Sequence record: MK327931.1
Origin: Escherichia phage vB_EcoM_G17
DNA length: 64,000 nt
Reading direction: 5' to 3' (one strand)
The notes under the pieces are model-generated. The model did not search any database and had not been told where the DNA came from. It worked only from the letters and a program-made list of their open reading frames with translations. Position numbers and translations under genes: made by a program. How positions within the stretch are numbered: position 1 is the stretch's first letter; every line of letters starts with the position of its first letter. Of this stretch, positions 27 through 55,376 are shown piece by piece.

Positions 27-3000
27 TTGCCTGAGTGGATGCAAGGCTTAGAAGATATTCAAAAAGTCAGTGATGATGTTATTCAACAATGGTTTAATCC
101 GGCTGAAAACGAATTAGTTGACGGCTATATTGGTGATATGGGTTCTCCTGCCGCTGCTGGTAATATCTTCTTACATGAAAGTACTGTAGCACGTCAACTT
201 TATCAGTTGTCCACTGCTTACGTCTCAAAAAATGATGATTCGACAATTCGTTCAATTCAATTTTATGATGATCTAGTTGGATACATGAATCATTATGGAG
301 CACTAACCGATAATGAAAGCCGTTTGTTCAACGGTAAGTTTTATGCATGGACTCCAGCTATTAACCCAAATAAAATGAACAATTTTAGCTCATATCTTTG
401 GGATACTAAAAACTCTTATAATATTACTTCACCTGATTACATTGTAATGGAACGTGGAGCACTTAATGGTAATACATGGTCACTACAAAACTTTTGGTAT
501 ACTTTAGGTGAAACATTAGAAGATGGCTCAATATTAACTGAAGAATTAATGCAAGATTCACGTTTTATTCGTGCACGTGCACCAATTATTGAATATAATA
601 AAAATATTGAGCTAATTAACTACGGTACAAAATTCCGTGGAACTGTTGATCTGTTCTCTGATATTATTAAACCTGAAGATATCGTTCAAAAAGATATTAA
701 TAGTGGTATACGTATTGATGGTATTATTCCGCAAGATGGAATGCGTATTCTATTCACCAGTATTGGTAACAATGGTGAAAACAATAGAATTTATAATGTA
801 TATGTGAAAAAAATGCAAGATGGTACTCGTGTTTATGGTTTAGCACTAGATCCAGAAGAAGAAACCGAATCACGCCCAAGTGGTGAACCTCAAGATGGTG
901 ATGTTGTTCTAATCACTAAAGGTAATGAGTATGGTAATAGTTCTATGTACTGGAATGGATCTTTGTGGGTTCGTGCACAATCAAAAACTAGTGTTAACGT
1001 ATTCCCTAAATTCCAACTTTATGATCGTAATGGTATCAAACTTGACAACAGTACTACATATCCATCAAGTAACTTTAAAGGTTCAGAGTTGTTTGGTTTT
1101 AAAATAAATTACAACTATGCAACTGATAGTGTATATGGATATAACATTGAACTTGGTGATTATAATTATTACATTTATGAAAACTTTTTACAATCCCAAC
1201 GTTATACCTATGACCATCTTGGAAAAGAAGTTGAAATTGATGGTTTATACTATTATAACATTATTGATGAAAATAATGAAATGAATCTTCAAACCGATTG
1301 GGTTCGTTCAGAAGAGTACTCTAAACAATTTGTAAAACAAACTCCACAAGTCCAACGTACTGATATGTATCGTGTATTCAGTACTGTTTATGATATGGAA
1401 GTTTTTAAAGAACCAGTTGATGGTATGTATGCATATGTTATTGAAGTTGATAGAACATATCAGTACTATAAAGCTGACCGTGAAACTTATCTAGATTGGC
1501 ATCCAATTACTGGTGATGGTGTTCAGATTGTAAAATATGACCATACATTCGAATTGGCACAAAAAGTTTTAGATAATGATTCTGATATTATTGAAGTTGT
1601 GGTTGATGGTGTTGATGTGTCCAAATATACCAAAAATGTTTCAAAAGGTCAAGTACAAAGCATCACTCTAGATAGTACTGTAGAATTGGATGAAGATTCT
1701 GTTATTCAAATTAGAACTTATAGCAGTACTGTAACTCCTAATAAAGAATTAGGTGCATATGAAGTTCCAATCAACCTACAAAATAACCCATATAATTCTA
1801 ATATTATATACATTAACCAAGGTGACTACACTTTACATTTTCAGGATATTATTCAAAAGAACATTACACGTGGTTCTTCTGATGATTTCAATGACTATGA
1901 AGAACGTTTGGCTAAAGGATTGGTTAATAATGGCGTAGGTACTAAAATTATCCAAAATGAAGCATCTATGCTTCCATTGATGGCACATACTGCAAATGAA
2001 GATATTGATTTGTTTGAAGCAACTATGTTTATGCAATCTGAATATTTTAGATTCATTAATAAATTTAATACACAAATGCTTCGTATGTATGATGAAAATC
2101 CATCAGACTTTTTACAAAATAGTGCTGCAAACATTGTTGATGCAATTTTAACTACTATTAATATGGGACGTGATAGTTCATTCCCATTCTATTATGATAA
2201 TGTTGGAAGTACTTCTGGATTCATTCGTGCATTTATACCACCAACACCACAGTTCTTAGGTATTCTTCAAGCATATGTACCAGAAAAAGCGACATTCCTC
2301 ACTGCTGGTAGTAAACCAAGCTGTTATAACATCAGTCATACTGGTATTATTTCCAAAGCATACCGTGTTATCAATGGTGTTGATAAAATGGATGATGTTG
2401 TATATGAATTAGAAAATAGAATTTTTAATAGTATTGATAATAAATTCAAAGATGTTGATTACGTACCAGTATTGAATAGTGATGACCTTTTCCCTACACC
2501 ATATTTCACTAAAACTGAATATAGTGCTGAAGAGAAACAAACATTATTACTACGTGGATACATTAACTTCACCGCAACTAATGGTATCAGTAATAGTACA
2601 CATGATTATGATCCTAACAATTGGAGAACTTGGAACTATACTGGCACTTATTATGTAGTTAATGGTCAAAGTACTGAAATTCCTGCACGTGGTTCATGGC
2701 GTGCCATTTACACTGACCAATATGGTACATATCGCCCAGCTACCCATCCGTGGGAAATGTTTGGCTTTACACAACGTCCAACTTGGTGGAACCAAGAATA
2801 CGAACCAACGGCTGTTCAAGTTGGTGAACGTGATAGTGATGTTGTATATGTATATGAAGCACTTGTTATGAATGAGCAAGGTGATTTAGTTCCTAGTGGT
2901 CTTTGGGATATTGACGGAACTATTGGAGATAGCAGTACTGGAACTATTTTATTTGGTGATCGTCGTGGTCAATATGACAAATATAAAAGATTTGGTGTAC

Positions 3001-6000
3001 AGCCATTCAAAATTACAAAAACTGGAAATAAAACATCTTCTGGTATTGATATTTGTGTGGTTGAATATATTGCACCTGAAATTTTAGGTTTAGTGTCTGG
3101 ATCTTTAAATCATAGAGCAGAACCTTGGACATATGGTGATATGGGTGACATGGAATTTACATACATGAACACTACATTGTTTGCATATGACCAAATGATG
3201 CTTTTGTATAAAGCTAAACCAGCACAATTTGCTAACTATTTCTGGGATACCCGCAACGATAACTTAAAAGAAGTATTCACTGATGGTTCACAATTCCTTT
3301 ATGGTGATACACGTAAGCGTATTAATTTTGATAAAAATACAGTAGTTCATGGTGAAAATAGCACAAGAACAATTGGTTATCAAATGTTTGTAAGTGACCA
3401 TTTGATGTATCAAAATAAAAATATTACCACCAAGTATGGGGATGTAGTTCGTTCTTCTTATATAAATGTTGGTCATAAAATTGGAGGATTTACTAAAGCA
3501 GATCAGCTAACATTCAATGCTAAATCTTTCGGTCTTATTTCACAAGAAAACCAAACCATTGGTCTTGTTCGTTCTAATAATATCCGTGATGAGCAAATGA
3601 GTGCGATCAAAATTACTTGGAATGGTAGTGCATATCAGATTGATGGATATGATCTAGTTGGTGCTAAATTTAAATATAAACTTCCAGTAAAAAATGGTAG
3701 AAAAGTAACTCTTAAATTGGAAAACCGTAATGTTGTTCATTATAATGAATGGAAGTCTGAAGCTTCAATTGAATATGGTAAAGTTTTCAATAGTTACCAA
3801 GAAGTTTATACTTTTATTTGTGGATATGGTGAATATCTTAAAGAACATGGTTGGATTTTTGAAGATGTAAATGATAGTGGTGCTCAACAAGATTGGAACA
3901 CTATTGCTAAAGATTTCGTGATCTGGAGTCAGAATTCTCTAGTAACTGGTGAATTTATTTCTTGTACCCCAAGTGCTGCAAACGCTAAATTTGGGGCAGA
4001 CTTTGGTTCAGTACAATCTATTACGCAAAATAATGGTGGTGTATGGTCATTACTTGATGATAATAACCAAGGTATTCGCCAATATGAAATTGAAACTTCT
4101 CGTATTGGAAATATCTTCACTGTTAGAACTTTAGAATCTAATAAACGCATTGCATTGATTCGTTTAAGTTTGTGTTCATATGAACATGCTGTTATTTTTG
4201 ATGATAAAACTATTTTTGGTGATTACATTTATCAGCCAACATATGGTTCTATTCAAGAACTAATTAAAATGTATGGATATATTACTGGTTCATGGACTGG
4301 TCGCCTACAAGCTCCTGGATTTATTATCTTGGAAGCTGGAACACTACCATCATTTGAAAAATTAGTGTCGGATTTCCAACATTATTATGATAGTGAAACT
4401 CCAGTAAGTGATGTACAATTACAAGAGTTGTCAAACCATTTGATTGGTTATCAATCTCGTGATTATCTACAGCGTATGATTAGTAGTGATGTTAGTCGTG
4501 TTGATTTCTATAAAGGATTCATTCACGATAAAGGTACTAACCAAGTTTTAGAACGTGTACTTCGTGTTTCTAAATCATATGACACTGATGAATATAAAGC
4601 ATTACAAGAATGGGCATTTAAAATTGGTACATATGGTAATATTGATGGTAAGAAAAACCTTCAATTTAAACTAATCAATGACCAATTTAAACAACAACCT
4701 CAAATGGTTTCTTTTGATGTAAATGCAACTTCAAATGGTAATGGTAATCATATTGTATACTTCGGTGAGCAAGGTAAAGATCCTCGTTGGATTACACGTC
4801 CAAATGGTAAGTTCTCATTCCCAATGCGTAGTGGAAGAAGTGAAAACATCCAACTTCCAGATATTGGTCCAGTAACATTGGATGAAGTATCGTACACAAC
4901 AAAAGATTTCAGTACTGCATATAATGACCGCATAACTTATACTAATGGTAAAGGTGAAAATCCTGAATCTGTGTGGATGTTTAAAGACGGTAATGGTTTG
5001 TGGAACATTTTTGAATTGGTTGATACTAATGTACAAATGGTTTCTATAACACCTATTGAAAATACCGATGTGTATGCTGAACAATTTTGTAAAGTAACTT
5101 TAACTGATAATGTACCACTTGAAGATGGTGATTATTATTATTTTGTTGATGAAACTAACTTTATGCCAGATACTTTAACAGTAGAAAGTCAATATTATAC
5201 TGCTGGTTCTGATCCTAAAGTTATGGTAGTTCCATTTGACACTTCTATTGATATTGAATTTACTGATCCAGATACACGTCCACGTTTGTATCGTTATGTA
5301 TCACGTTTTGCCAGTACTGATGATCGTCAAGCTTACATTGACAAGAAATATAGTTTTAAAGCACCACAAAGTACTTTATTTGATCGTCCAACGACATATG
5401 ATGAACGTACTAACATTACTGAGCTATATCTAAACGTTTATGACCCAATTAATGGTGTTATTCCAGGTGCGGCTATGCAAAACGTAACATATACTTCACC
5501 AGTTGATCCTGCACAGTATAATAGTAATGGAGAGTTAATCCAGGCTTGGGGTGCTGATAAAGTTGGTCAAGTATGGTGGAACACTAGCACTGCATTTTAT
5601 TTGGATTATACTCGTGCAATTTATGACGCAGACGGTAATGTTGATATTGATGCAACCAATGAATACAAACGTTACAACTGGGGCCGTTTGTTACCACATA
5701 GTACCATTGATGTGTTAGAGTGGGTTTGTTCACCAGTTGAGCCATATAACTGGGACAAATACTGTAAAGATGTTGCTAAGAAAAACAAAAATAATACTAT
5801 GTATCTACCAAGTGGAACTGCACTTGAAGATAATTATAGTACATTTTTGGAATATGATAGTTCAACTGATAGTTATGTAACAAAATACTATTTCTGGGTA
5901 CGTGATACAATTTATGTACCACCACTACATACCAGAACGAAATCATGTACTGACATTGCTCGTATTATTAAAGATCCAACACAGCTAAACATTCCTTGGT

Positions 6001-9000
6001 TCGCTCCAATAAATGAAAACTCGTTTATTCTTAGTAATATGCAATTTAAAGTGAATGATGATACCAGTATTTTAACTGTTTCTTATTACATGGATAGTAC
6101 TGAAGTTGTTAAACATGACCAGTATCAACTATGTAAAGAAGGTGACAGCTATAACTTTAACCCACTAATTTGGGATTCAATGTGGAACTCACTAATTGGT
6201 CAAGAAACAACTGAATCAGGTTCTGTGATTAATTTATTATATCCAGATGTTGATAACGGTTTAGGATCAAACAAAACTTGGTTCCAAAATGTTATAGAAG
6301 CTCGTAGAAACTTTGTAGAAAGTGCTAATAATTATTATAGGTCACAAAACATAACCACTAATAGTGTTGTTATGGAAGATGTGTTTAATGTTAAAACCAC
6401 TGAAGTTAACCCTAATGAAGTTTCTTTCCGTGTGTTGTCTTACAATAATGAATTAGTTATTGCAGTTGAAAGTGATAAATTTAAAGAAAATGACGCTGTT
6501 ATTTTAAGTACTAGTGGATATCTACCAAATCCATTAACTTCTAGTGCTGTTTATTTTATTCACTTCGACGAAAATGGATATATTCAGTTAATGAATAGTC
6601 CAGCAAACGCGGGTAGTGTTGTTACTATAACGTTAGAAAACAAAGGTGAGGGACAACATAAAATGATTAAACAATCTGATTATGTTGAATCACTAGGAAC
6701 CTCATTAGACATGACTCAGTACTGGTCATATGCTGATTGGTATGATGTTGGATATGATAGTAACACGACTTATACTCAAGAGTCAAGCTTAGAAGATGCT
6801 AATACTAAAAACTACCAAGTTGGCGATATTATCAGAGTTACCGATAGTGAAAACATTTGGACATTGTATATTAAATCACAATCACGCGATTCAATTTATT
6901 GGAAAGCGATTGGTCGTGAAAACAGTACAGTTGAACTCAATGATATGCTTTACGCAGATTATAGTGTTCATAATGATAATGGTTCACTAAGCAATCGTGA
7001 AATCAACGTTCGTAAAGCACTAGCTTTACTCAAAAATTCTTTCGATTTACATCAAAGCGAAATTGTTTTTGATATGGTCAAATATGTACATGTTGAACAA
7101 AGTGTTGTGGATTGGGTATTTAAAACATCATATATCTATATTGTTGGTTTGGAACAATCATTAGTTCAAAACTATTCAAACGATAATTTGATTAATCAAA
7201 TTGTTGAATATTTTGAAGAAGTTAAACCTTATAGAACTAAAATTCGTTCACAAATAGAGCAAAAGACATCTGATGATGATTTAATAAAAGGTCTATGTAA
7301 TGATTTAGATCCTAATGGATATATTTTCGTTGATGGTTCTTGGATCAAAACTGAAAAAGATATTTGGGATTATGAGTACGCTCAATTTAATGAAATTACC
7401 CAAAAATGGGAACAGGTAGGTTCACTACCAAGTGATTTCGTTACACCAAATAGAAGATTCCAAGAAATTGATATTATTATGCATTATGATAATATTCAGT
7501 GTAAACCAAATGAAGATTTGGCAAGCATAAATGAATTAGTAAGTGTTAATAACAAATATCAATCCAATGAAAAGGATGCTGTTAGTAACTATGAATTACA
7601 ACGTTATATATATTCTTTCCCAGAATATAGTGAAGAAACTTTCGATCTTCTTATTGCTTATCAAATGCAAATCTACTATCCAGAATTGGATGTAACACTA
7701 GGAACAGCATATGGCGTTAACCAGTGGTATAAAGACCATGCGGAAGATTTAGAAGCAACTGATGAATTCACTGCTACATTGGAACGTGTTTATAAAGAAT
7801 CAACGCATAACGATATGTTTACTGACCTTAGACAATATGTTCAGTATAACACATTGGCAAACCGTTTGAAACTTTATAAAGATATAAGTGATGAGAAAAT
7901 TCACGATGAAGTTGGATGTGGATTTAGTGGACTTACTTATAATGACAATCCTAGTACTAGACTTCCATTAGGCTTTTCTTCTAGTAATGATTATAACTAT
8001 GGATATTTTGAAATAAGCAGTGAATTGTATCAAAAATACATTTCATTAATTAAAGATAAAAATCCTGACGCATCAGACTATGAAGTAAAAGTTAAACTTG
8101 AAGTTGAGTATGGTGTATATGTTTATCGTTATGATGAAGTAGGTGGTGATACCCGTTTCTATACTGATGCTATTCACGTATTAGCAGGTATGAGAGGGTT
8201 ATTCGACAAAGACGCTACTGATAAGTACGAAAAAGCTGAAGAGATTCTTAGTAAGACCCCAATTGATATCTATGCAATTACAATGATTCCACGAAAATAT
8301 GTTTACTTAAATGTTAACGGTGTATATCAAAGTATACCTGATGAACAAAGTATTGATGATTTCATGGAAGATTATTTTATCACAAATGGTGAAATGGTTG
8401 AACTAGCTGAAATAAATCTTGATGATTTACCACTAGATCAAAATAATCCAATGTATTCTGATTATCAATATATACTTGATAGTATTACTGAAGCTAAGTA
8501 CTTCAATGATATGAATGCATTTGATAACCTAGCATTGGAATCTCAAACTTCTTCAATAAAATGGGAAGTTAAAGATGATGAAGTTGATCCTTATATTGTG
8601 GATATATCTGACATAAACCCTTCTGGGCGTGATGTAGGTCAAATTAGATTTACAGTTGATGGATATGGGTTTGACAATGTATCTCTTGTACAATTACGTG
8701 ATAACAGCAGATATCAAACTGAAGGTATGGCAATTATCAATCCATATAAACATACAGAAGCAATTGTAAGTATTCCTTCATATGCTAAGATTGAAAATGA
8801 TATTAATAAAACAACATCGAAGTTTGATGAAAAATATTTCTATCGTGTGAGATCTATTAATAGCTTAACTGAAGCAGAAATAGTTGACAATGACCTATCT
8901 GATGGTGATAAGGTGATGATTTTCACTCCTGATGGTGAAGATTTTGTGAGATATCAAAATCACACATGGGAAACAATCTTGCGTGTATCTAACATCAAAA

Positions 9001-9926
9001 ACAATACAACTCCGATCCTATTCACTGTAAGAAATACAGGTAAGGAAACGATTGAATTGATTGATGAGAGTACTGGTGCAGTTCTCCGTTATGATAACAT
9101 CACTCTTGCACAACAAAATGAGCCAGTACAGCCTCTAGCATTGAACATTGTTCGTGTTAGAACATTTGCTGACCCTGAATTTGTCAAGAATGGTATTAAA
9201 TTGTATGAACAAAATAGAAATTACACCATTGATGTAATTAATTATGATGTTTTCTACGATACTACTTTAAATGGTGGTAAGTACAATGACGGAATAACAC
9301 CAGATGACGTTGACGTTTGGATAATCTCTAATGAAATATTTGATGTTGATGGAATTACTATCGATAACGGTTATAACTTACCAATTACGGGTGCGGGAGT
9401 TCTTAGTGAATTGGCAAGAACTAAAATGACTGATAGTTTAGAAATCAACGTTATCGAATATGATTCAAGTGTTATTCAACCGTTTAGAAATAATGAAGGG
9501 ATATGGGTTTATGGATTCCCAATGGTTGACGGTATGTATATCGGTGTTGTTGGTGGTACTGTTACTAACATCACAACCATTAGTGAAGAAAATACAACCT
9601 ATGTTTCTCAACCTAAATCAATAAGTCCTTATAGTATTAGAAATAATGTTTTATCCGGTTCAGCCGCAAACATGAATGATATTATATCGATTGGATATGA
9701 AAAAGTTGAAGTTAGAAATGCAAATAATTTACTCCGTGGTGTAATGTATAGTGCAGAACATGATTTTAAACTTAATACTACATATTCTTTCAATGGAATT
9801 AATTTAGGTAATTATGATATGTTAAAACGTTACACACAAAATAGTTACACTATAGATCTTTCAGTATACACTGATAGTCTACAAGTTAGTGGTAATGATA
9901 TTAAAAATATATTATTAGTTAAGTAA
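27..9926 (+). CDS. Giant 3299-aa protein of unknown function (probable virion-associated protein); start uncertain
   Basis: Single uninterrupted 9.9-kb ORF; N/D/Y/T-rich, no motif recognised by eye. Track start is TTG; first ATG is at 39; frame is open to position 3, so the gene may begin upstream of the window. Ends at a hairpin terminator. Confidence 0.8.
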   Translation: MPEWMQGLEDIQKVSDDVIQQWFNPAENELVDGYIGDMGSPAAAGNIFLHESTVARQLYQLSTAYVSKNDDSTIRSIQFYDDLVGYMNHYGALTDNESRLFNGKFYAWTPAINPNKMNNFSSYLWDTKNSYNITSPDYIVMERGALNGNTWSLQNFWYTLGETLEDGSILTEELMQDSRFIRARAPIIEYNKNIELINYGTKFRGTVDLFSDIIKPEDIVQKDINSGIRIDGIIPQDGMRILFTSIGNNGENNRIYNVYVKKMQDGTRVYGLALDPEEETESRPSGEPQDGDVVLITKGNEYGNSSMYWNGSLWVRAQSKTSVNVFPKFQLYDRNGIKLDNSTTYPSSNFKGSELFGFKINYNYATDSVYGYNIELGDYNYYIYENFLQSQRYTYDHLGKEVEIDGLYYYNIIDENNEMNLQTDWVRSEEYSKQFVKQTPQVQRTDMYRVFSTVYDMEVFKEPVDGMYAYVIEVDRTYQYYKADRETYLDWHPITGDGVQIVKYDHTFELAQKVLDNDSDIIEVVVDGVDVSKYTKNVSKGQVQSITLDSTVELDEDSVIQIRTYSSTVTPNKELGAYEVPINLQNNPYNSNIIYINQGDYTLHFQDIIQKNITRGSSDDFNDYEERLAKGLVNNGVGTKIIQNEASMLPLMAHTANEDIDLFEATMFMQSEYFRFINKFNTQMLRMYDENPSDFLQNSAANIVDAILTTINMGRDSSFPFYYDNVGSTSGFIRAFIPPTPQFLGILQAYVPEKATFLTAGSKPSCYNISHTGIISKAYRVINGVDKMDDVVYELENRIFNSIDNKFKDVDYVPVLNSDDLFPTPYFTKTEYSAEEKQTLLLRGYINFTATNGISNSTHDYDPNNWRTWNYTGTYYVVNGQSTEIPARGSWRAIYTDQYGTYRPATHPWEMFGFTQRPTWWNQEYEPTAVQVGERDSDVVYVYEALVMNEQGDLVPSGLWDIDGTIGDSSTGTILFGDRRGQYDKYKRFGVQPFKITKTGNKTSSGIDICVVEYIAPEILGLVSGSLNHRAEPWTYGDMGDMEFTYMNTTLFAYDQMMLLYKAKPAQFANYFWDTRNDNLKEVFTDGSQFLYGDTRKRINFDKNTVVHGENSTRTIGYQMFVSDHLMYQNKNITTKYGDVVRSSYINVGHKIGGFTKADQLTFNAKSFGLISQENQTIGLVRSNNIRDEQMSAIKITWNGSAYQIDGYDLVGAKFKYKLPVKNGRKVTLKLENRNVVHYNEWKSEASIEYGKVFNSYQEVYTFICGYGEYLKEHGWIFEDVNDSGAQQDWNTIAKDFVIWSQNSLVTGEFISCTPSAANAKFGADFGSVQSITQNNGGVWSLLDDNNQGIRQYEIETSRIGNIFTVRTLESNKRIALIRLSLCSYEHAVIFDDKTIFGDYIYQPTYGSIQELIKMYGYITGSWTGRLQAPGFIILEAGTLPSFEKLVSDFQHYYDSETPVSDVQLQELSNHLIGYQSRDYLQRMISSDVSRVDFYKGFIHDKGTNQVLERVLRVSKSYDTDEYKALQEWAFKIGTYGNIDGKKNLQFKLINDQFKQQPQMVSFDVNATSNGNGNHIVYFGEQGKDPRWITRPNGKFSFPMRSGRSENIQLPDIGPVTLDEVSYTTKDFSTAYNDRITYTNGKGENPESVWMFKDGNGLWNIFELVDTNVQMVSITPIENTDVYAEQFCKVTLTDNVPLEDGDYYYFVDETNFMPDTLTVESQYYTAGSDPKVMVVPFDTSIDIEFTDPDTRPRLYRYVSRFASTDDRQAYIDKKYSFKAPQSTLFDRPTTYDERTNITELYLNVYDPINGVIPGAAMQNVTYTSPVDPAQYNSNGELIQAWGADKVGQVWWNTSTAFYLDYTRAIYDADGNVDIDATNEYKRYNWGRLLPHSTIDVLEWVCSPVEPYNWDKYCKDVAKKNKNNTMYLPSGTALEDNYSTFLEYDSSTDSYVTKYYFWVRDTIYVPPLHTRTKSCTDIARIIKDPTQLNIPWFAPINENSFILSNMQFKVNDDTSILTVSYYMDSTEVVKHDQYQLCKEGDSYNFNPLIWDSMWNSLIGQETTESGSVINLLYPDVDNGLGSNKTWFQNVIEARRNFVESANNYYRSQNITTNSVVMEDVFNVKTTEVNPNEVSFRVLSYNNELVIAVESDKFKENDAVILSTSGYLPNPLTSSAVYFIHFDENGYIQLMNSPANAGSVVTITLENKGEGQHKMIKQSDYVESLGTSLDMTQYWSYADWYDVGYDSNTTYTQESSLEDANTKNYQVGDIIRVTDSENIWTLYIKSQSRDSIYWKAIGRENSTVELNDMLYADYSVHNDNGSLSNREINVRKALALLKNSFDLHQSEIVFDMVKYVHVEQSVVDWVFKTSYIYIVGLEQSLVQNYSNDNLINQIVEYFEEVKPYRTKIRSQIEQKTSDDDLIKGLCNDLDPNGYIFVDGSWIKTEKDIWDYEYAQFNEITQKWEQVGSLPSDFVTPNRRFQEIDIIMHYDNIQCKPNEDLASINELVSVNNKYQSNEKDAVSNYELQRYIYSFPEYSEETFDLLIAYQMQIYYPELDVTLGTAYGVNQWYKDHAEDLEATDEFTATLERVYKESTHNDMFTDLRQYVQYNTLANRLKLYKDISDEKIHDEVGCGFSGLTYNDNPSTRLPLGFSSSNDYNYGYFEISSELYQKYISLIKDKNPDASDYEVKVKLEVEYGVYVYRYDEVGGDTRFYTDAIHVLAGMRGLFDKDATDKYEKAEEILSKTPIDIYAITMIPRKYVYLNVNGVYQSIPDEQSIDDFMEDYFITNGEMVELAEINLDDLPLDQNNPMYSDYQYILDSITEAKYFNDMNAFDNLALESQTSSIKWEVKDDEVDPYIVDISDINPSGRDVGQIRFTVDGYGFDNVSLVQLRDNSRYQTEGMAIINPYKHTEAIVSIPSYAKIENDINKTTSKFDEKYFYRVRSINSLTEAEIVDNDLSDGDKVMIFTPDGEDFVRYQNHTWETILRVSNIKNNTTPILFTVRNTGKETIELIDESTGAVLRYDNITLAQQNEPVQPLALNIVRVRTFADPEFVKNGIKLYEQNRNYTIDVINYDVFYDTTLNGGKYNDGITPDDVDVWIISNEIFDVDGITIDNGYNLPITGAGVLSELARTKMTDSLEINVIEYDSSVIQPFRNNEGIWVYGFPMVDGMYIGVVGGTVTNITTISEENTTYVSQPKSISPYSIRNNVLSGSAANMNDIISIGYEKVEVRNANNLLRGVMYSAEHDFKLNTTYSFNGINLGNYDMLKRYTQNSYTIDLSVYTDSLQVSGNDIKNILLVK

Positions 9927-9934
9927 TAAAAAAA

Positions 9935-9967
9935 GGAGAGCATTATGCTCTCCTTTTCTTTTTTTAT
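9935..9967. terminator. Bidirectional intrinsic terminator between convergent genes
   Basis: Perfect 8-bp stem GGAGAGCA/TGCTCTCC with 3-nt loop, A-run upstream and T-run downstream; sits between the stop of the giant ORF (+) and the stop of clpA (-). Confidence 0.65.
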
Positions 9968-12252
9968 ACTAGTGCTTTATCTACAGCTTTGGTACGTTTC
10001 GGCTTAATATCGATTTTACCATCAATAACATCAAATGTAATGTTACCACCATTCACAAGTGAACCACACAACATTTCTTTAGCTAGTGGTACACGAATGT
10101 TTTGTTCAATGGTACGTTTCATTGGACGTGCACCCATACCAACTTTTACCCCATTTTTCGCAAGCCATTCACGTGCAGCTTTTGTCAATGTAACTTTAAC
10201 ATTACGGTCTTTGACTTGTTCATTCAAACCACCCATGAACTTATCAATGATGCTGTCAATAGCTTCACTGCTTAGGTCTTTAAACGTAACGATACTATCA
10301 ATACGGTTAATAAACTCTGGTGGCAAGAATGCTTTAATTGCCTTGTCCTGTGCAGTGTCACTACCGCTCATACCAATGCTACGCTTTGTTGAATCAGCCG
10401 CACCAAGGTTTGTAGTCATAATAACAGTTACGTTATTAAAATATACAGTTTTACCTTGAGAACCAGTCAGACGACCTTCATCCAAAACCTGTAGGAAGGT
10501 TAGTAGTACTTTACGATCTGCTTTTTCAATTTCATCAAGTAACAGTACTGCATTAGGGAACTGCTCAATTTTATCCAACAGTAAACCGTTACCAGAATCA
10601 TGACCAACATAACCTGGAGGTGAACCAATTAGTTTAGAAACAGTATGTTCTTGAGAAAATTCTGACATATCAAAGCGAATGAGTTCCGCACCAGTTGCGT
10701 CTGCTAATGCTTTGGTAATTTCTGTTTTACCAGTACCAGATGGTCCAACAAACATAAATGCACCCTGAACACTAGATTTGTCACGCAGTCCTGCACGAGC
10801 TACCATCACGTTATCAACTAATTTTTGAATAGCTTCCTCTTGACCGTATACACGTGAGCGTAGTGCATCTGGTAGATTACGCATACGATCACTTTCAGTA
10901 CATGCAACCACGTTGATATCCAAATTGGCAATACCAGCAACAACTTCTTGAATCAAATTGGCAGTAATAAGCTTACTATTGTTGTCACGTGAACGAACTT
11001 TAGCCGCAGCAGCATCCATTAGATCAATTGCTTTATCTGGGAAGTGCTTATTCTTCAGGAATTTATCACTGAGAGAAATTACAGCATCCATTGCATCAGA
11101 TGTGAACTCAACATTATGGAATTTTTCATACGTTGGTTTCAAACCATTAACAATTGCACGAGTTTCATCAATTGTCGGCTCAACTACGTCAATTTTCATA
11201 AAACGACGAGTTAATGCACTATCTTTCTCGATATTTTTACGATATTCATCATATGTTGTTGCACCAATTACACGAATCTCACCACGTGAAAGTGCTGGCT
11301 TAAGCATATTGCTCATGTCCATAGAACCATTACTTGCGGAACCAGCCCCAACCATAATATGAATTTCATCAATGAAAACAATAGTATTTTCACGTTTCTT
11401 TAGTTCTTTTAGCAAATTGTCGATGCGTTCTTCAAATTCACCACGATACTTAGTACCAGCAGTCAATGCACCAACATTTAGTGAAAGAATTTCAACGTCT
11501 TTTAGGTGTTCAGGTACGTTACCATCAGCAATAGCTTGTGCAAGCCCGTCGATGATTTGTGTTTTACCTACACCAGCTTCACCAGTGAGAATAGCATTCT
11601 TTTTGGTTTTGCGAGCAAGAGTCTCAATCAATGCAGACAATTCTTTCTGGCGACCAATCATAGGATCTAGTTTGCCTTCTTTTGCAAGAGCAGTTAGATT
11701 CGTTGTATAGTCTTCCAAACCTTTTTGTTTAGATGATTGCTGCTGTTGGGCCACTTTTTTATCTCCAATCGGTTCGTCATTAATACTTTGTAAGTTGATA
11801 CCCTTATCAAGTGACTCAACGTGTTTCTGTAATGCACGTGCAGCTTCAGTACAGCTAACACCTTCTTCTTTTAACGCAGCTTCTAGTGCTGTGTTAGGGA
11901 AAGACAGACATTCGAATAGAACAAAATATGCATCAATCGAAAAATCATCACTTTTTAGTTGTTCAATAACTGATTTTTTAGAAAGCTCATGTACAACGCG
12001 ATTCACTAGAAGTGAAGTGCGATTCGCGTCTTCATCTTTAACACTTTTTGGTGCATGTGGAACTGTTGTATTTTTAAGATAGTTCATTAGGCGGTTGTGC
12101 AGTTTGTCTGCATCAATGTTCATATCTTCAAATACGTTCTTGATGCTATCAATAGTCAGTACTGTGGCACTTACGTGGTCAATAGTCAAGAATGTATGAC
12201 CTAGAGATGTTGCCAGTTCGTCGCTTTTTTTGAACAATTGAGTAAGATTCAT
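9964..12252 (-). CDS. clpA: ClpA-like ATP-dependent Clp protease ATP-binding subunit (two AAA+ domains)
   Basis: Walker A GEAGVGKT (D1) and GPSGTGKT (D2), Walker B FIDEIH and [16 protein letters not shown] sensor motif; co-linear with E. coli ClpA by eye (N-domain, TTNL..DP.IGR.KEL, no M-domain); IGM tripeptide at the ClpP-docking loop position. Trimmed to ATG at 12252 (AGGAGA SD); track start 12273 is GTG. Confidence 0.9.
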
Positions 12253-12292
12253 GTATTCTCCTATGTGATTCACGTCACTCTAATTAATAAAC

Positions 12293-12320
12293 ATTATATC
12301 ACATTCTTACGGTTTGTCTA
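12293..12320 (-). promoter_or_regulatory. sigma70-type promoter upstream of clpA (TAGACA-N16-TGnTATAAT)
   Basis: Minus strand reads TAGACA, 16-nt spacer, then TGATATAAT (extended -10); about 40 nt upstream of the clpA ATG. Shares the core GTGATATAAT with the promoters at 36353-36474. Confidence 0.5.
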
Positions 12321-37279: not shown

Positions 37280-38260
37280 TTATTTGTCTCCTAAAAATTT
37301 CTTGTATTTTTCTTGGAGACTTTCAAAAATATCTTCTACTTCTTCATCAGAATCATCTTCCAAGTCAATGTTACCTTCAGGTGAATCATCTTCTTCACTT
37401 TCATTAACATTTAGTGGGTTATCTCCTAATGCAGTGCCTGGGAATTTTGGTTCAAATTTATGAACACGATTTTCGTTCCCTTCATTATCATAATACTCAG
37501 GTTCTGGACGATTGTCAAGATCTTCATCTACAACACGTCTCCAATAAAATTGATTGCCTTTTGCAATTACAACAAAATGGTCACCTTCAACACCATTAGT
37601 CTTTAGTTGACCATCACGAACGGCATCAGCTTCTGTATCATATGGACCATAATCAGTACTGTTAGATGGTTCTTCATCTTCAGAGATACTTAGATCTGGT
37701 AGAAATTGGGTATCTTTCATTTCTTTATCGGTAGCAGGATTACCCTCTACTGAAAAATCTTCGTCTTCTTCTTCGTTAATACCAGCAAGAGATAGCATAC
37801 GACTAAAATCGAATTCTTCTTCAATAATTTCTTCTTCTTCCTCATCGTCTTCTTCAACTGATTCTAGTTGAGGTTGACCACTAAGGTCAAGAGAAAAATC
37901 TTCTTCACCTTCTACACCTGGTTCTGAAAATTCAGCATCCATACTAACTTCATCTGTGTCAGCACCAAAATCACCAACATCAGCGGAAAGATCATCAACT
38001 GCCGCTGCTAGTGGGTCTTCAACTGAAGTTTCAATTCCACCAATTTCTTCTTCAGCACCAATAGAATCGAGATCTAGTGGAGCAATAGGTGGAAGAGATG
38101 GAGTCATAGACCCCATAGATGGTACTGGAGCGGCAACTACTGGGTCTTGACGTTCAGCTTGACCAGCAAGAGCTAACATACGTGATAGAGTTTCCAAATC
38201 ATCAGATTCTAAACCTGCGATATCGATTTTAACTTGTGCTTCATTAATTTTTTTAGCCAT
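37280..38260 (-). CDS. Highly acidic protein (326 aa), poly-D/E segments
   Basis: ORF with long acidic tracts (VEEDDEEEEEIIEEEFDF, DLEDDSDEEVED). Confidence 0.6.
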   Translation of the reverse strand: MAKKINEAQVKIDIAGLESDDLETLSRMLALAGQAERQDPVVAAPVPSMGSMTPSLPPIAPLDLDSIGAEEEIGGIETSVEDPLAAAVDDLSADVGDFGADTDEVSMDAEFSEPGVEGEEDFSLDLSGQPQLESVEEDDEEEEEIIEEEFDFSRMLSLAGINEEEDEDFSVEGNPATDKEMKDTQFLPDLSISEDEEPSNSTDYGPYDTEADAVRDGQLKTNGVEGDHFVVIAKGNQFYWRRVVDEDLDNRPEPEYYDNEGNENRVHKFEPKFPGTALGDNPLNVNESEEDDSPEGNIDLEDDSDEEVEDIFESLQEKYKKFLGDK

Positions 38261-52331: not shown

Positions 52332-53444
52332 TTAGAACATTTGTTTGATTGCTTCGTAACGAAGTTCACAAACAAAATCACGAATTTCTGACGTTTCAAG
52401 TTCACCATCTTTGACCATTTGCTGAATATCAGGCAATTCAACATCAGTATAACGATCATAAACTTTAATAATTAGATCTTCAAGTTCTAAATCAATTTCT
52501 TTTCGCAAAATGAAGTATTCCAAAACTTTATAAAGGAATTCTTCACCTCCGTTATTTTTAATATTCATATCCAATAAAATATTACCCATTTCAATAGGGG
52601 TCTTTTTACGGAATGTTTTGATATCATCACGGAAACGTTTGATATAATTACTAAATTTAACATACTTAACTGGAACTTTAATAGCACCGTTAAGTACTGA
52701 ATCATTATTTACTTCTTCATTTTCAAGAAGAATAGACCACAGAAAATATGGTTTATATACATCAGTACAGTTATCTGAAATATAATCAATAAGGTCTAAA
52801 TTCTTTTTGGTCAAAGATGTATTAAACACCTTTTCGTAATAACCAAATTTACTTAGCGTCTTAAGGAACTTTGAAGGCTTTTCTTCAGAAAATGATTTTT
52901 CGAATTCCACAAAAACACGGTCAGGAACAAGATGATTTAGCTCACCACTATTGACCATTCCAATAGCGAGTTCCTCAGTGCTTTCATGGATAGTAAAGTC
53001 TGAATAACGAGTAGCAAATCGAGCAAGACGTAACACGCGTAATGGATCTTCTTTAAAATGGTCAGAAACATGACGTAGTATCTTGTTCTTGATATCAGCT
53101 TTACCACCGTATGGATCGATGTGAATTTGTAGTACTGGATCATACGCAATTGCATTAATTGTAAGGTCACGGCGATACAAATCTTGTTCTAGTGTTACGC
53201 CTTTTGTATCCACTTCAAAGCCACCATATCCAGTACCAGTTTTACGCTCAGTACGGGCTAATGCGTGTTCATTACCTTCTGGACTTAGATATACTGGGAA
53301 ATCCTTACCTACTTGCTTATAGCCAATACTTTGCAAGTACTTAAGATCAGATTCGGATGCACCAACAATGACATAATCTTTGTCTTTTGCACGGATGCCC
53401 ATTAAACGGTCACGGACGTAACCGCCAACCAAATACTTTTTCAT
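52332..53444 (-). CDS. cca: tRNA nucleotidyltransferase (CCA-adding enzyme), head domain only
   Basis: N-terminus MKKYLVGGYVRDRLMG-AKDKDYV matches the class II GGxVRD...D.D head; RRDLTINAIAYD motif; 370 aa, no HD domain apparent. Confidence 0.8.
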   Translation of the reverse strand: MKKYLVGGYVRDRLMGIRAKDKDYVIVGASESDLKYLQSIGYKQVGKDFPVYLSPEGNEHALARTERKTGTGYGGFEVDTKGVTLEQDLYRRDLTINAIAYDPVLQIHIDPYGGKADIKNKILRHVSDHFKEDPLRVLRLARFATRYSDFTIHESTEELAIGMVNSGELNHLVPDRVFVEFEKSFSEEKPSKFLKTLSKFGYYEKVFNTSLTKKNLDLIDYISDNCTDVYKPYFLWSILLENEEVNNDSVLNGAIKVPVKYVKFSNYIKRFRDDIKTFRKKTPIEMGNILLDMNIKNNGGEEFLYKVLEYFILRKEIDLELEDLIIKVYDRYTDVELPDIQQMVKDGELETSEIRDFVCELRYEAIKQMF

Positions 53445-55043: not shown

Positions 55044-55376
55044 TTACTCTTCGTTTTCTGTCAAATCATCAAGAACTGGGTGTTCTGGATGGTTTCGGCG
55101 GTGTAATTTAATGCTTTTGTCTTTACTGAATACAGTTTCCATCTTATCAAAAGATTCAACAATTGCTTTATACAAATCAGCATCATCAGCAGTTACTGAT
55201 TTACTACCAGCAGTTAAAGTTACAGCATATTGAGTTTTATGCTCTTTCTTAACATGAACACCAATGTCTAGTACTGAAGAAGTACGGTACTTATCCAGAC
55301 TTTTTGCTTCATTGTAAATAGCATCTTGGATTGCTGGAGTGATATCAACGTTGCCTTGGATATTTAGATTTAGCAT
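55044..55376 (-). CDS. hpf: Ribosome hibernation promoting factor / RaiA (YfiA) family protein
   Basis: Co-linear with E. coli HPF by eye: MLNLNIQGNVDITPAIQDAI...LDKY versus MQLNITGNNVEITEALREFV...LEQY, then V.VK.E.....A.L...G......A...D.Y.AI....DK and C-terminal K..H; AGGAAGG SD. Confidence 0.7.
   Translation of the reverse strand: MLNLNIQGNVDITPAIQDAIYNEAKSLDKYRTSSVLDIGVHVKKEHKTQYAVTLTAGSKSVTADDADLYKAIVESFDKMETVFSKDKSIKLHRRNHPEHPVLDDLTENEE

Follow-up and report, generated by a model that had tools for sequence, protein, structure and literature searches.

ClpA of Escherichia coli, found in the ClpAP and ClpAPS complexes (PDB 1ksf, 6w1z, and 7uiv), has an N-domain, a D1 module, and a D2 module with a small C-terminal subdomain, and it has no M-domain. 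ClpA has already been mentioned in RaK2-like jumbo phages (PMC6102473, PMC7824862), and the proteins of 121Q (gp581), PBECO4, RaK2 (RaK2_00069), CBB (gp235), and GAP32 form one family, PHROG 4871. A literature search for ClpA, ClpP, and ClpS members of this kind returned genome descriptions only; biochemical or genetic data were not found. A ClpA and a ClpP are likewise encoded side by side in the genomes of PA5oct-type Pseudomonas jumbo phages (Wroclawvirus), and Agrobacterium phage Atu_ph07 has a ClpA with its own ClpP plus a ClpS, although the ClpAs of these phages are only 41% identical to the phage ClpA described here.

The clpA gene of an Asteriusvirus jumbo phage

The stretch of DNA that we analyzed (the window) is a 64-kb slice out of a 350-kb genome. 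It matches the sequence of Escherichia phage Sharanji (Asteriusvirus) at 100% identity, starting from position 207631 of the Sharanji record. Its clpA is identical to Sharanji gp377, annotated as clpA in GenBank, and the product belongs to PHROG 4871 (1037 bits). It is a gene of an Asteriusvirus jumbo phage of the 121Q/PBECO4/Sharanji group. Because of the GenBank annotation, the PHROG group, and the two publications cited above, the presence of a phage-encoded ClpA here is already known and is not a discovery. This clpA is 99.6 to 100% identical to Asteriusvirus records at the nucleotide level, and its product has 60 to 75% identity to the ClpAs of RaK2, Munch, CBB, and BF; the position of the gene is the same in both groups. 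Only the docking tripeptide (see below) changes between genera of RaK2-like phages, and the clpA in the window is the Sharanji allele.

As described in an earlier note on this DNA, clpA stands alone between a giant open reading frame and a structural block: it is monocistronic, is encoded on the opposite strand, and is flanked by the giant virion protein gene on one side and by tail/baseplate genes on the other. The adjoining giant virion protein is ~3,300 amino acids (aa) long. No tRNAs are present within the 64-kb window. The location of clpA is strictly conserved in Sharanji, RaK2, and CBB: in each of these phages it lies within the baseplate/tail block, beside the giant virion protein gene, and is encoded on the opposite strand. 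This conservation is consistent with a ClpP-independent unfoldase or chaperone that serves morphogenesis, for example by handling the ~3,300-aa virion protein or tail/baseplate parts, and Iyer et al. suggest a morphogenesis role for jumbo-phage ClpA/ClpX (PMC7824862). However, the conserved position may simply mirror whole-genome collinearity. In addition, ClpA was not detected in the virion proteomes of phAPEC6 and CBB, although proteins of neighboring genes were, and the phage ClpA is not a virion component; this counts against the morphogenesis reading, although a chaperone could assist assembly without remaining in the virion. We regard this role for ClpA as unlikely, also in view of the evidence from the docking loop and the partner genes given below.

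The earlier note correctly identified the gene as encoding ClpA but probably placed its start too far upstream. Its coordinates, 9964..12273 on the minus strand, are those of a mechanical open reading frame of 769 aa that begins with a GTG at 12273. The clpA coding sequence is 9964..12252 (minus strand; stop at 9964-9966), which encodes 762 aa, based on the open reading frame list, GenBank, TIGR02639, PHROG 4871, and the E. coli ClpA match. The ATG at 12252 is the likely translation start, because a ribosome-binding site read from the sequence (AGGAG, 12258..12262, minus strand) is located 5 nt before it, because no Shine-Dalgarno sequence was found when we looked upstream of the GTG, and because GenBank uses the ATG. 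The GTG follows the -10 element at a distance of ~20 nt, and the in-frame extension up to it (12253..12273, minus strand) is probably 5′ untranslated region, not coding sequence.

A sigma-70-type promoter with an extended -10 TG precedes the gene at 12293..12320 (minus strand). Its elements (TAGACA, 16 nt, TG-a-TATAAT) are an 11/12 match, in agreement with the earlier note's description of a near-consensus extended -10 promoter. Sites of this class are ~5-fold enriched genome-wide (111 versus ~23 in shuffles) and TG-extended sites are ~16-fold enriched (32 versus ~2 in shuffles). At the level of sequence, the clpA promoter is real. At the other end of the gene, a bidirectional intrinsic terminator hairpin at 9931..9957 (A-run, GGAGAGCA-TTA-TGCTCTCC, T-run) is common to clpA and the convergent giant open reading frame.

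The phage ClpA protein and its docking loop

The product scores 755 bits against the ClpA model TIGR02639, covering model positions 4 to 732 of 734, and HMMER aligns it with the E. coli ClpA structures 1ksf and 6w1z in one collinear stretch (query 24 to 748; E = 2e-180). Over 732 aa, its identity to E. coli K-12 ClpA is 43%. ClpA models score highest, whereas the alignments to ClpB, ClpC, and Hsp104 are each split in two. For ClpB and ClpC this is because the coiled-coil M-domain between D1 and D2 is absent from the phage protein, as is the case for ClpA-type proteins. Identity as ClpB, ClpC, ClpV, or ClpG/ClpK was rejected based on lower scores and the two-stretch alignment around the missing M-domain.

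Pfam matches (AAA, AAA_lid_9, AAA_2, and ClpB_D2-small) delineate two AAA+ modules with intact versions of Walker A and B, the KYR and GYVG pore loops, arginine fingers, and sensor-2, all of them identical or nearly identical to those of E. coli ClpA. In D1, these include Walker A (GEAGVGKT, aa 224 to 231, 11560..11583), the pore loop (KYRG, aa 268 to 271, 11440..11451), and Walker B (IVFIDEIH, aa 291 to 298, 11359..11382), all located by motif alignment on the minus strand. In D2, the same approach located, also on the minus strand, Walker A (GPSGTGKT, aa 503 to 510, 10723..10746), the pore loop (GYVG, aa 547 to 550, 10603..10614), Walker B (LLLDEIE, aa 570 to 576, 10525..10545), the arginine-finger segment (FINRID, aa 647 to 652, 10297..10314), and sensor-2 (GARPM, aa 707 to 711, 10120..10134). 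The pore-loop segments GTKYRGEFE and PPGYVGH align with GTKYRGDFE and PPGYVGF of E. coli ClpA, and in an alignment of 35 family members the ATPase and pore-loop motifs vary little or not at all. The first repeat of a very divergent Clp_N-type domain (aa 1 to 59, 12076..12252, minus strand) was recognized by Pfam PF02861 and by alignment to the E. coli ClpA N-domain, with a score that is weak but above threshold (21.7 bits versus a cutoff of 20.7; one repeat). The domain plan proposed in the earlier note, an N-domain and two AAA+ modules with intact Walker motifs and no M-domain, thus agrees with our results.

Based on these comparisons, the phage protein is a full-length, 762-aa, double-ring AAA+ protein of the ClpA unfoldase type, and it is predicted to be catalytically competent, with ATPase and unfoldase activity. 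Since its scores fall below the curated equivalog cutoffs (755 versus 993 bits for TIGR02639 and 655 versus 1350 bits for NF008263), it is best called a member of a ClpA-like phage subfamily rather than an equivalog of bacterial ClpA. The phage ClpA clade is separate, with at least 53% identity inside the clade versus at most 45% to all cellular ClpAs. Recent capture of a host clpA was rejected, given this sharp gap between phage and cellular proteins and the modest identity to E. coli ClpA.

The ClpP-docking loop, KRSIGMSG (aa 623 to 630, 10363..10386, minus strand), was located by HMMER alignment to 1ksf and by multiple alignments. It occupies the position homologous to that of the E. coli ClpA loop, as the earlier note had proposed: KRSIGMSG and E. 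coli ERKSIGLIH can be aligned residue by residue, which makes the tripeptide IGM (aa 626 to 628, 10369-10377, minus strand) homologous to I617-G618-L619. The phage tripeptide is IGM where that of E. coli is IGL, and the phage loop is 2 residues shorter, with the contact residues I620 and H621 missing. The Met at the third position falls outside the classical [LIV]-G-[FL] motif, which is matched by 21 of the 115 family clusters. The first position is I, M, L, or V in 112/115 clusters and the central Gly is kept in 96/115; S, N, or A replaces this Gly in the other 19, and some tripeptides read IGG, LGH, or TAI. The docking-loop insertion itself is kept in every member of this family that was aligned and is not known from ClpB or ClpV.

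Few D2 positions vary as much in the phage family as the tripeptide, which reads IGM, IGV, MNM, MSM, LGM, or VGM, among others, in phages of Escherichia, Klebsiella, Salmonella, Cronobacter, and Erwinia. This variability fits co-adaptation inside a phage ClpA-ClpP pair. The degenerate tripeptides of some lineages could also reflect relaxed selection and a ClpP-independent function there, and they count in favor of the morphogenesis reading; E. coli ClpA alone remodels proteins such as RepA. However, the persistence of the insertion in all members, with a first position that stays hydrophobic, argues against that reading.

The earlier note had reasoned that, with no clpP in view, the phage ClpA may dock onto the ClpP of the host. 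If this were the case, ClpA would dock mainly on E. coli ClpP and redirect host proteolysis, and any phage ClpP would have another role or enter mixed complexes. IGM differs from IGL only conservatively; the two are chemically close and exactly aligned, and IGM might allow host ClpP to be bound as well. Early in infection the host has plenty of ClpP, and clpA has a strong host-type promoter. In contrast, selection for binding to host ClpP would not be expected to produce such tripeptide variation among phages of these five host genera, because enterobacterial ClpP is, as far as is known, highly conserved, and the shorter phage loop is missing the fourth contact residue, I620.

A ClpP and a ClpS-fold protein elsewhere in the genome

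It is correct that the 64-kb window contains no clpP, but this does not apply to the genome. Outside the window, Sharanji encodes a ClpP, gp496 (record 304750-305445), which matches Pfam CLP_protease with 141 bits. NCBIfam models for ClpP proper give 155 and 152 bits, versus 51 bits for a ClpP-related head-maturation model (cutoff, 120), although gp496 remains below the ClpP equivalog cutoff (152 versus 309 bits). The Ser/His/Asp triad is intact, with the S97, H122, and D171 equivalents invariant in the alignment, and the axial-loop motif [IVM]PxV[VLI]E (IPxVVE) is conserved in phage ClpP; gp496 is therefore predicted to be catalytically intact.

A label of head-maturation protease, derived from RefSeq and PHROG, was rejected for gp496, based on the higher scores of the ClpP-proper models and the conserved axial loop. 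This role is also disfavored by the location of the gene among early/metabolic genes and by the presence of gp358, a separate T4-type prohead protease that covers head maturation. A single peptide in CBB virions is too weak an observation to revive the label.

We compared the docking pocket of phage ClpP with that of E. coli ClpP at 14 ClpA-contact positions (L23, L48, F49, A52, Y60, Y62, F82, I90, M92, F112, L114, L189, E26, and R192). Only 2 of these are identical and 12 differ. F82 is replaced by S or N, L114 by G (in 20/20 clade members), and R192 by P, E, or K, and an extra conserved C-terminal tail lies beside the pocket. As judged from this alignment, the pocket is present but remodeled, and it is not a conserved hydrophobic pocket of the IGL/IGF type. 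The ClpPs of the PA5oct-type phages and Atu_ph07 differ in being nearer to cellular ClpP (46% identity to E. coli) and in having no C-terminal tail, and their pocket is in part more cell-like, with L23, E26, L48, and F49 kept and an aromatic residue at F82, while L114 is Ser. Across 12 same-genome ClpA/ClpP pairs, a Phe at the third tripeptide position accompanies F112=F and L114=T; this co-variation is phylogenetically confounded, and we rejected it as independent evidence since the pattern follows phylogeny.

The second candidate partner outside the window is gp293 (record 135529-136074; 181 aa). Sequence searches with gp293 gave no NCBIfam match and no PDB sequence match, and the Pfam ClpS score is barely past the cutoff (24.7 versus 23 bits). 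Its AlphaFold2 model (pLDDT 84.5), however, has ClpS proteins as all of its top 36 Foldseek PDB matches, with a root mean square deviation (rmsd) of ~1.2 Å over ~83 residues. Structure prediction and fold search thus settle, at the level of the model, what sequence alone could not: gp293 has the ClpS core fold. Compared with bacterial ClpS (PDB 3o2h, 1mbu, and 2wa9), the core fold is similar (target-normalized TM score of 0.82 to 0.92; rmsd, ~1.2 Å), but gp293 is longer (181 versus 106 aa), with a conserved N-terminal beta-sheet/helix module and a C-terminal helix as extra modules, and its pocket is altered. In E. coli numbering, D35 and T38 of the N-degron pocket are kept, and N34D, D36P, M40A (the gatekeeper), and H66N are near-invariant within the phage ClpS-like family; this is not a canonical N-degron pocket. 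The equivalent of E79 is kept and K84 is replaced by F. A literature search for residues of the interface between ClpS and the ClpA N-domain found none; gp293 may bind the phage ClpA as ClpS does.

A strongly conserved extra N-terminal module combined with a divergent binding pocket is what might be seen if the ClpA-ClpP-ClpS set specifically destroyed host proteins of defense or stress, which the adaptor would target by means of its additional modules. The promoters of the three genes, all of host type, are compatible with this, and Iyer et al. propose that phage ClpS and ClpP target host proteins (PMC7824862). However, the claim about substrates is speculative, and it is a sub-case of the phage-protease explanation developed below, with no separate mechanism. 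No defense-related neighbors or known anti-defense homology were seen in the comparisons made here. We consider a counter-defense function to be quite improbable.

Peptidase partner of the phage ClpA

In the RaK2-like clade, ClpA (at least 60% identity) is found in ~70 records, ClpP in 69 + 2, and the ClpS-like gene in 71, and the host genera match. Within the record, clpA, clpP, and the gp293 gene are dispersed, at ~218, ~305, and ~136 kb, and do not form an operon. Part of the co-occurrence of the trio could come from the overall collinearity of genomes within one clade. Even so, the company of a ClpP and a ClpS-fold adaptor is a further argument against the morphogenesis reading. It also bears on the proposal that the phage ClpA exploits host ClpP: the phage has an intact ClpP of its own, found alongside ClpA in practically all related genomes, so the step from a missing clpP to host docking is not supported, and host-ClpP docking is no longer the parsimonious reading. 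We now consider it improbable that host ClpP is the main partner.

A phage-encoded protease is favored over use of the host peptidase because the same genome carries both a ClpP and a ClpS-like adaptor outside the window. Taken together, the co-occurrence of the trio, the variation of the tripeptide, and the remodeled ClpP pocket point to pairing within the phage system. We infer both the choice of ClpP partner and the timing of expression of the trio, and we think it more likely than not that the phage ClpA is the motor of a phage-encoded ClpA-ClpP-ClpS protease rather than a hijacker of host ClpP. In such a protease, a hydrophobic-Gly-hydrophobic loop (IGM) would anchor the ClpA hexamer to a tetradecamer of gp496. 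Substrates, which might be host or phage proteins, would be unfolded and threaded by way of the KYR and GYVG pore loops into the gp496 chamber, and gp293, with its additional N- and C-terminal modules, would modulate which substrates are chosen. Because clpA, clpP, and the gp293 gene each have a strong sigma-70-type promoter in the sequence, that of clpP being of the same design as that of clpA, host RNA polymerase could presumably express all three.

More tentatively, these proteins could constitute an orthogonal, phage-private Clp protease in RaK2-like jumbo phages, a possibility to which we give clearly less credence. In this case, the hydrophobic-G/S/N-Met loop would have co-evolved with the remodeled ClpP pocket (F82 polar, L114 Gly, and the C-terminal tail), the pair would be insulated from host ClpA, ClpX, and ClpP, and the ClpS-fold adaptor, with its novel N-terminal module and a gatekeeper opened by the change from Met to Ala, would deliver a new class of substrates.

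The absence of a partner gene from the window is weak evidence when a 350-kb genome disperses its functional partners. If only the phage ClpA and ClpP share this docking interface, the pair would represent a naturally occurring orthogonal AAA+ protease. Such a case would help in understanding how unfoldase-peptidase specificity is encoded, and it might possibly be adapted for targeted protein degradation in E. coli.

The clpA gene and its product

The entire 64-kb window maps exactly onto the genome of phage Sharanji (OR545507.1, Asteriusvirus) from record position 207631, and the gene is 100% identical to the Sharanji gene annotated clpA (gp377). The open reading frame (769 aa) spans window positions 9964 to 12273 on the minus strand, but the product is likely 762 aa (9964 to 12252), because a ribosome-binding site, AGGAG (12262 to 12258, minus strand), lies 5 nt before the ATG at 12252, which is also the start in GenBank, whereas the upstream sequence of the GTG at 12273 offers no ribosome-binding site and this GTG is ~20 nt from the -10 element. 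A sigma-70-type promoter (TAGACA, 16 nt, TGaTATAAT; 11/12, with an extended -10 TG) is found at 12320 to 12293 on the minus strand, and a hairpin terminator acting on both strands (9931 to 9957) is common to clpA and the convergent giant open reading frame. Since it has its own promoter and this shared bidirectional terminator, clpA is monocistronic and alone on its strand there, as the earlier note claimed. The giant frame (27 to 9926, plus strand) encodes a virion structural protein of ~3,323 aa (PHROG 10938); its full gene, record positions 207585 to 217556, starts just upstream of the window.

The best family matches of the product are TIGR02639 ClpA (755 bits, model positions 4 to 732 of 734) and PHROG 4871 "ATP-dependent protease" (1037 bits, full length). 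It aligns with E. coli ClpA structures in a single collinear stretch (E = 2e-180), with 43% identity to E. coli K-12 ClpA over 732 aa, while ClpB, ClpC, and Hsp104 each align in two stretches because the phage protein has no M-domain. When 35 phage-family and cellular homologues were aligned with E. coli ClpA, little or no variation was seen in the Walker A and B motifs of either ring, the KYR and GYVG pore loops, the two arginine-finger segments, or sensor-2. Phage KRSIGMSG pairs with E. coli ERKSIGLIH, and therefore the tripeptide IGM (aa 626 to 628; window 10369 to 10377, minus strand) is homologous to I617-G618-L619. These results bear out the earlier identification of a ClpA that lacks an M-domain and retains a homologous IG[LM] loop.

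Homologues with 60 to 75% identity occur in RaK2, K64-1, Munch/7t3, CBB, GAP32, BF, fHe-Yen9, and the pEa_SNUABM phages, and PA5oct-type Pseudomonas phages have a ClpA that is 41% identical. In a large protein database, identities to the phage family extend without a break from 93% down to 53%, and all other sequences are at ≤45%. This sharp drop rules out a recent capture from a host; clpA is an old phage lineage. The family has been annotated before, and Iyer et al. (PMC7824862) include ClpA/ClpX, ClpP, and ClpS in their list of genes found in jumbo phages. The Clp genes are not discussed in the Sharanji paper or in a 2026 review, and our literature search found no functional study of these phage Clp proteins. 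Annotation of the same gene is inconsistent among the matches (OQ708376.1, KC295538.1, and Salmonella phage SD-x records), where it appears as "putative virion protein and lysozyme murein," as "hypothetical protein," or as two split hypothetical proteins; the clpA of the SD-x phages and that of the E. coli phage share 99.6 to 99.8% identity.

Probable ClpP and ClpS-fold partners

The earlier note saw no clpP and proposed docking on host ClpP. None is visible in the window, but the inference is wrong at the genome scale: reading the whole Sharanji annotation revealed two Clp partners outside the window, gp496 and gp293. The first, annotated clpP (record 304750 to 305445, minus strand; 10750 to 11445 of genome slice L008), scores 141 bits against Pfam CLP_protease; in NCBIfam, ClpP proper comes first (152 to 155 bits), whereas the ClpP-related head-maturation model scores 51 bits, below its cutoff of 120. 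Identity to E. coli ClpP is 36%; Ser, His, and Asp occupy the triad positions, and the IPxVVE axial loop is conserved. Head maturation is covered by a separate T4-type prohead protease, gp358, in the Sharanji annotation, and the "head maturation protease" label that gp496 bears in RefSeq-derived records looks like a misannotation. After the strand lining the docking pocket, phage ClpP carries a conserved, family-specific C-terminal tail of ~20 aa (NExGxxxVKRRxGxxEWV) that is found in none of the cellular ClpPs; in gp496, a 3-aa insert precedes it.

The second partner, gp293, annotated "ATP-dependent Clp protease adaptor" (record 135529 to 136074, minus strand; 37529 to 38074 of slice L004), lies directly downstream of the phage infC gene (IF-3). 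By sequence it is only just recognizable as ClpS (Pfam ClpS, 24.7 bits; cutoff, 23), and neither NCBIfam nor a PDB sequence search gave a match. However, the best 36 PDB matches of an AlphaFold2 model built from 17 homologues (pLDDT 84.5) are all ClpS structures (target-normalized TM, 0.82 to 0.92; rmsd, ~1.2 Å over ~83 residues). Outside the ClpS core are a conserved C-terminal helix and a strongly conserved N-terminal module (aa 1 to 65; three strands plus helices), in which the motif VFSLxxFSVVKAxYKDSVYYLAGxNDITxY occurs. Relative to E. coli ClpS, the N-degron pocket has the substitutions N34D, D36P, M40A (the gatekeeper), and H66N, which are near-invariant within the phage family.

Searches of a phage collection (50,697 records) found ClpA at ≥60% identity in ~70 records, phage-type ClpP at ≥60% in 69 (and at 45% in two Xanthomonas phages), and the ClpS-like protein in 71, with host-genus counts that agree across the three. 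ClpA is also paired with its own ClpP in PA5oct-type phages and in Atu_ph07. In the PA5oct-like Pseudomonas phage vB_Pa-PAC2, of an unrelated lineage, ClpA is 41% identical and ClpP is encoded ~13 kb away; several pocket positions of this ClpP are more like those of cellular ClpP, and it lacks the C-terminal tail, which suggests that different jumbo phages acquired Clp sets independently.

The docking interface

In the ClpAP cryo-EM structure, ClpA I617, G618, L619, and I620 contact A52, L48, F49, and F82 of one ClpP protomer and L23, Y60, Y62, I90, M92, F112, L114, and L189 of its neighbor, with E26 and R192 on the C-terminal strand (10.1101/820209). Of these 14 contact residues, Sharanji ClpP shares only 2 with E. 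coli ClpP, compared with 34% identity overall. All five reference ClpPs (four from cells and one PA5oct-type) have an aromatic residue at the F82 position, where 16 of 20 ClpPs from the RaK2-like clade have N, S, or T; the L114 position is Gly in all 20.

Across 115 ClpA family clusters, the commonest tripeptides are IGM (17), MGM (16), IGV (11), LGM (9), and IGA (9), followed by LGL (8), MSM (8), VGF (6), IGG (5), MNM (5), and less frequent variants. The pattern [LIV]-G-[FL] fits only 21 clusters, 19 lack the central Gly, and the I620 equivalent is absent. Within the otherwise very conserved D2, positions 617 and 619 are at the 87th and 93rd percentiles of variability. ClpP is generally highly conserved across enterobacteria. 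On that premise, a loop under selection to fit the host protein should not differ this much between phages that infect Escherichia, Klebsiella, Salmonella, Cronobacter, and Erwinia. The sequences are better matched by co-adaptation to the pocket of the phage's own ClpP, itself variable, or by a loosening of constraint. Co-variation of tripeptide and pocket in 12 same-genome pairs is phylogenetically confounded. That phage ClpA docks mainly on host ClpP seems unlikely to us, although the difference between IGM and IGL is conservative; such docking is no longer needed.

Expression and possible function

The clpP promoter has the same design as that of clpA (TGGACA, 16 nt, TG-TATAAT; 11/12), and a perfect 12/12 sigma-70 consensus precedes the infC/clpS-like pair. 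The genome has a genuine class of such promoters: sites of at least 11/12 number 111 against ~23 in shuffles (~5-fold enriched), and TG-extended sites number 32 against ~2 (~16-fold). Of the 111, 100 are on the reverse strand and 11 on the forward strand; Sharanji has an RpoD-like sigma factor of its own, gp182. We lean modestly toward the explanation that ClpA is the unfoldase of a putative ClpA-ClpP-ClpS protease encoded by the phage, whose genes host RNA polymerase could express.

The position of clpA is kept in RaK2 and CBB, on the opposite strand between a ~3,300-aa virion protein gene adjoining a baseplate wedge gene and, on the other side, genes for a virion protein and a tail-sheath-stabilizer-like protein. 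This conserved position and the degenerate tripeptides of some lineages would suit a ClpP-independent chaperone in tail or baseplate assembly, an improbable role, as it leaves unexplained both the retention of the docking loop and the fact that ClpP and ClpS travel with clpA. ClpA was not detected in virions: both its neighbors are present in phAPEC6 virions (gp245, 381.9 kDa, the giant-protein equivalent, and gp248), but no Clp ATPase is in the list of 62 phAPEC6 virion proteins, and in CBB virions the sole Clp protein is ClpP, by one peptide. A counter-defense role for the Clp set, which we rate as very unlikely, would be a substrate-level subcase of the phage-protease explanation.

Converted from the Sharanji annotation, the minus strand of the window also encodes a ribosome hibernation/S30EA-type factor (gp425, 55044 to 55376), a CCA-adding enzyme (gp419, 52332 to 53444), and a Macro-domain protein (gp414, 50516 to 50992). 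Together with IF-3 and two GroES-like genes located elsewhere on the genome, these give the phage a broad toolkit for translation and proteostasis.
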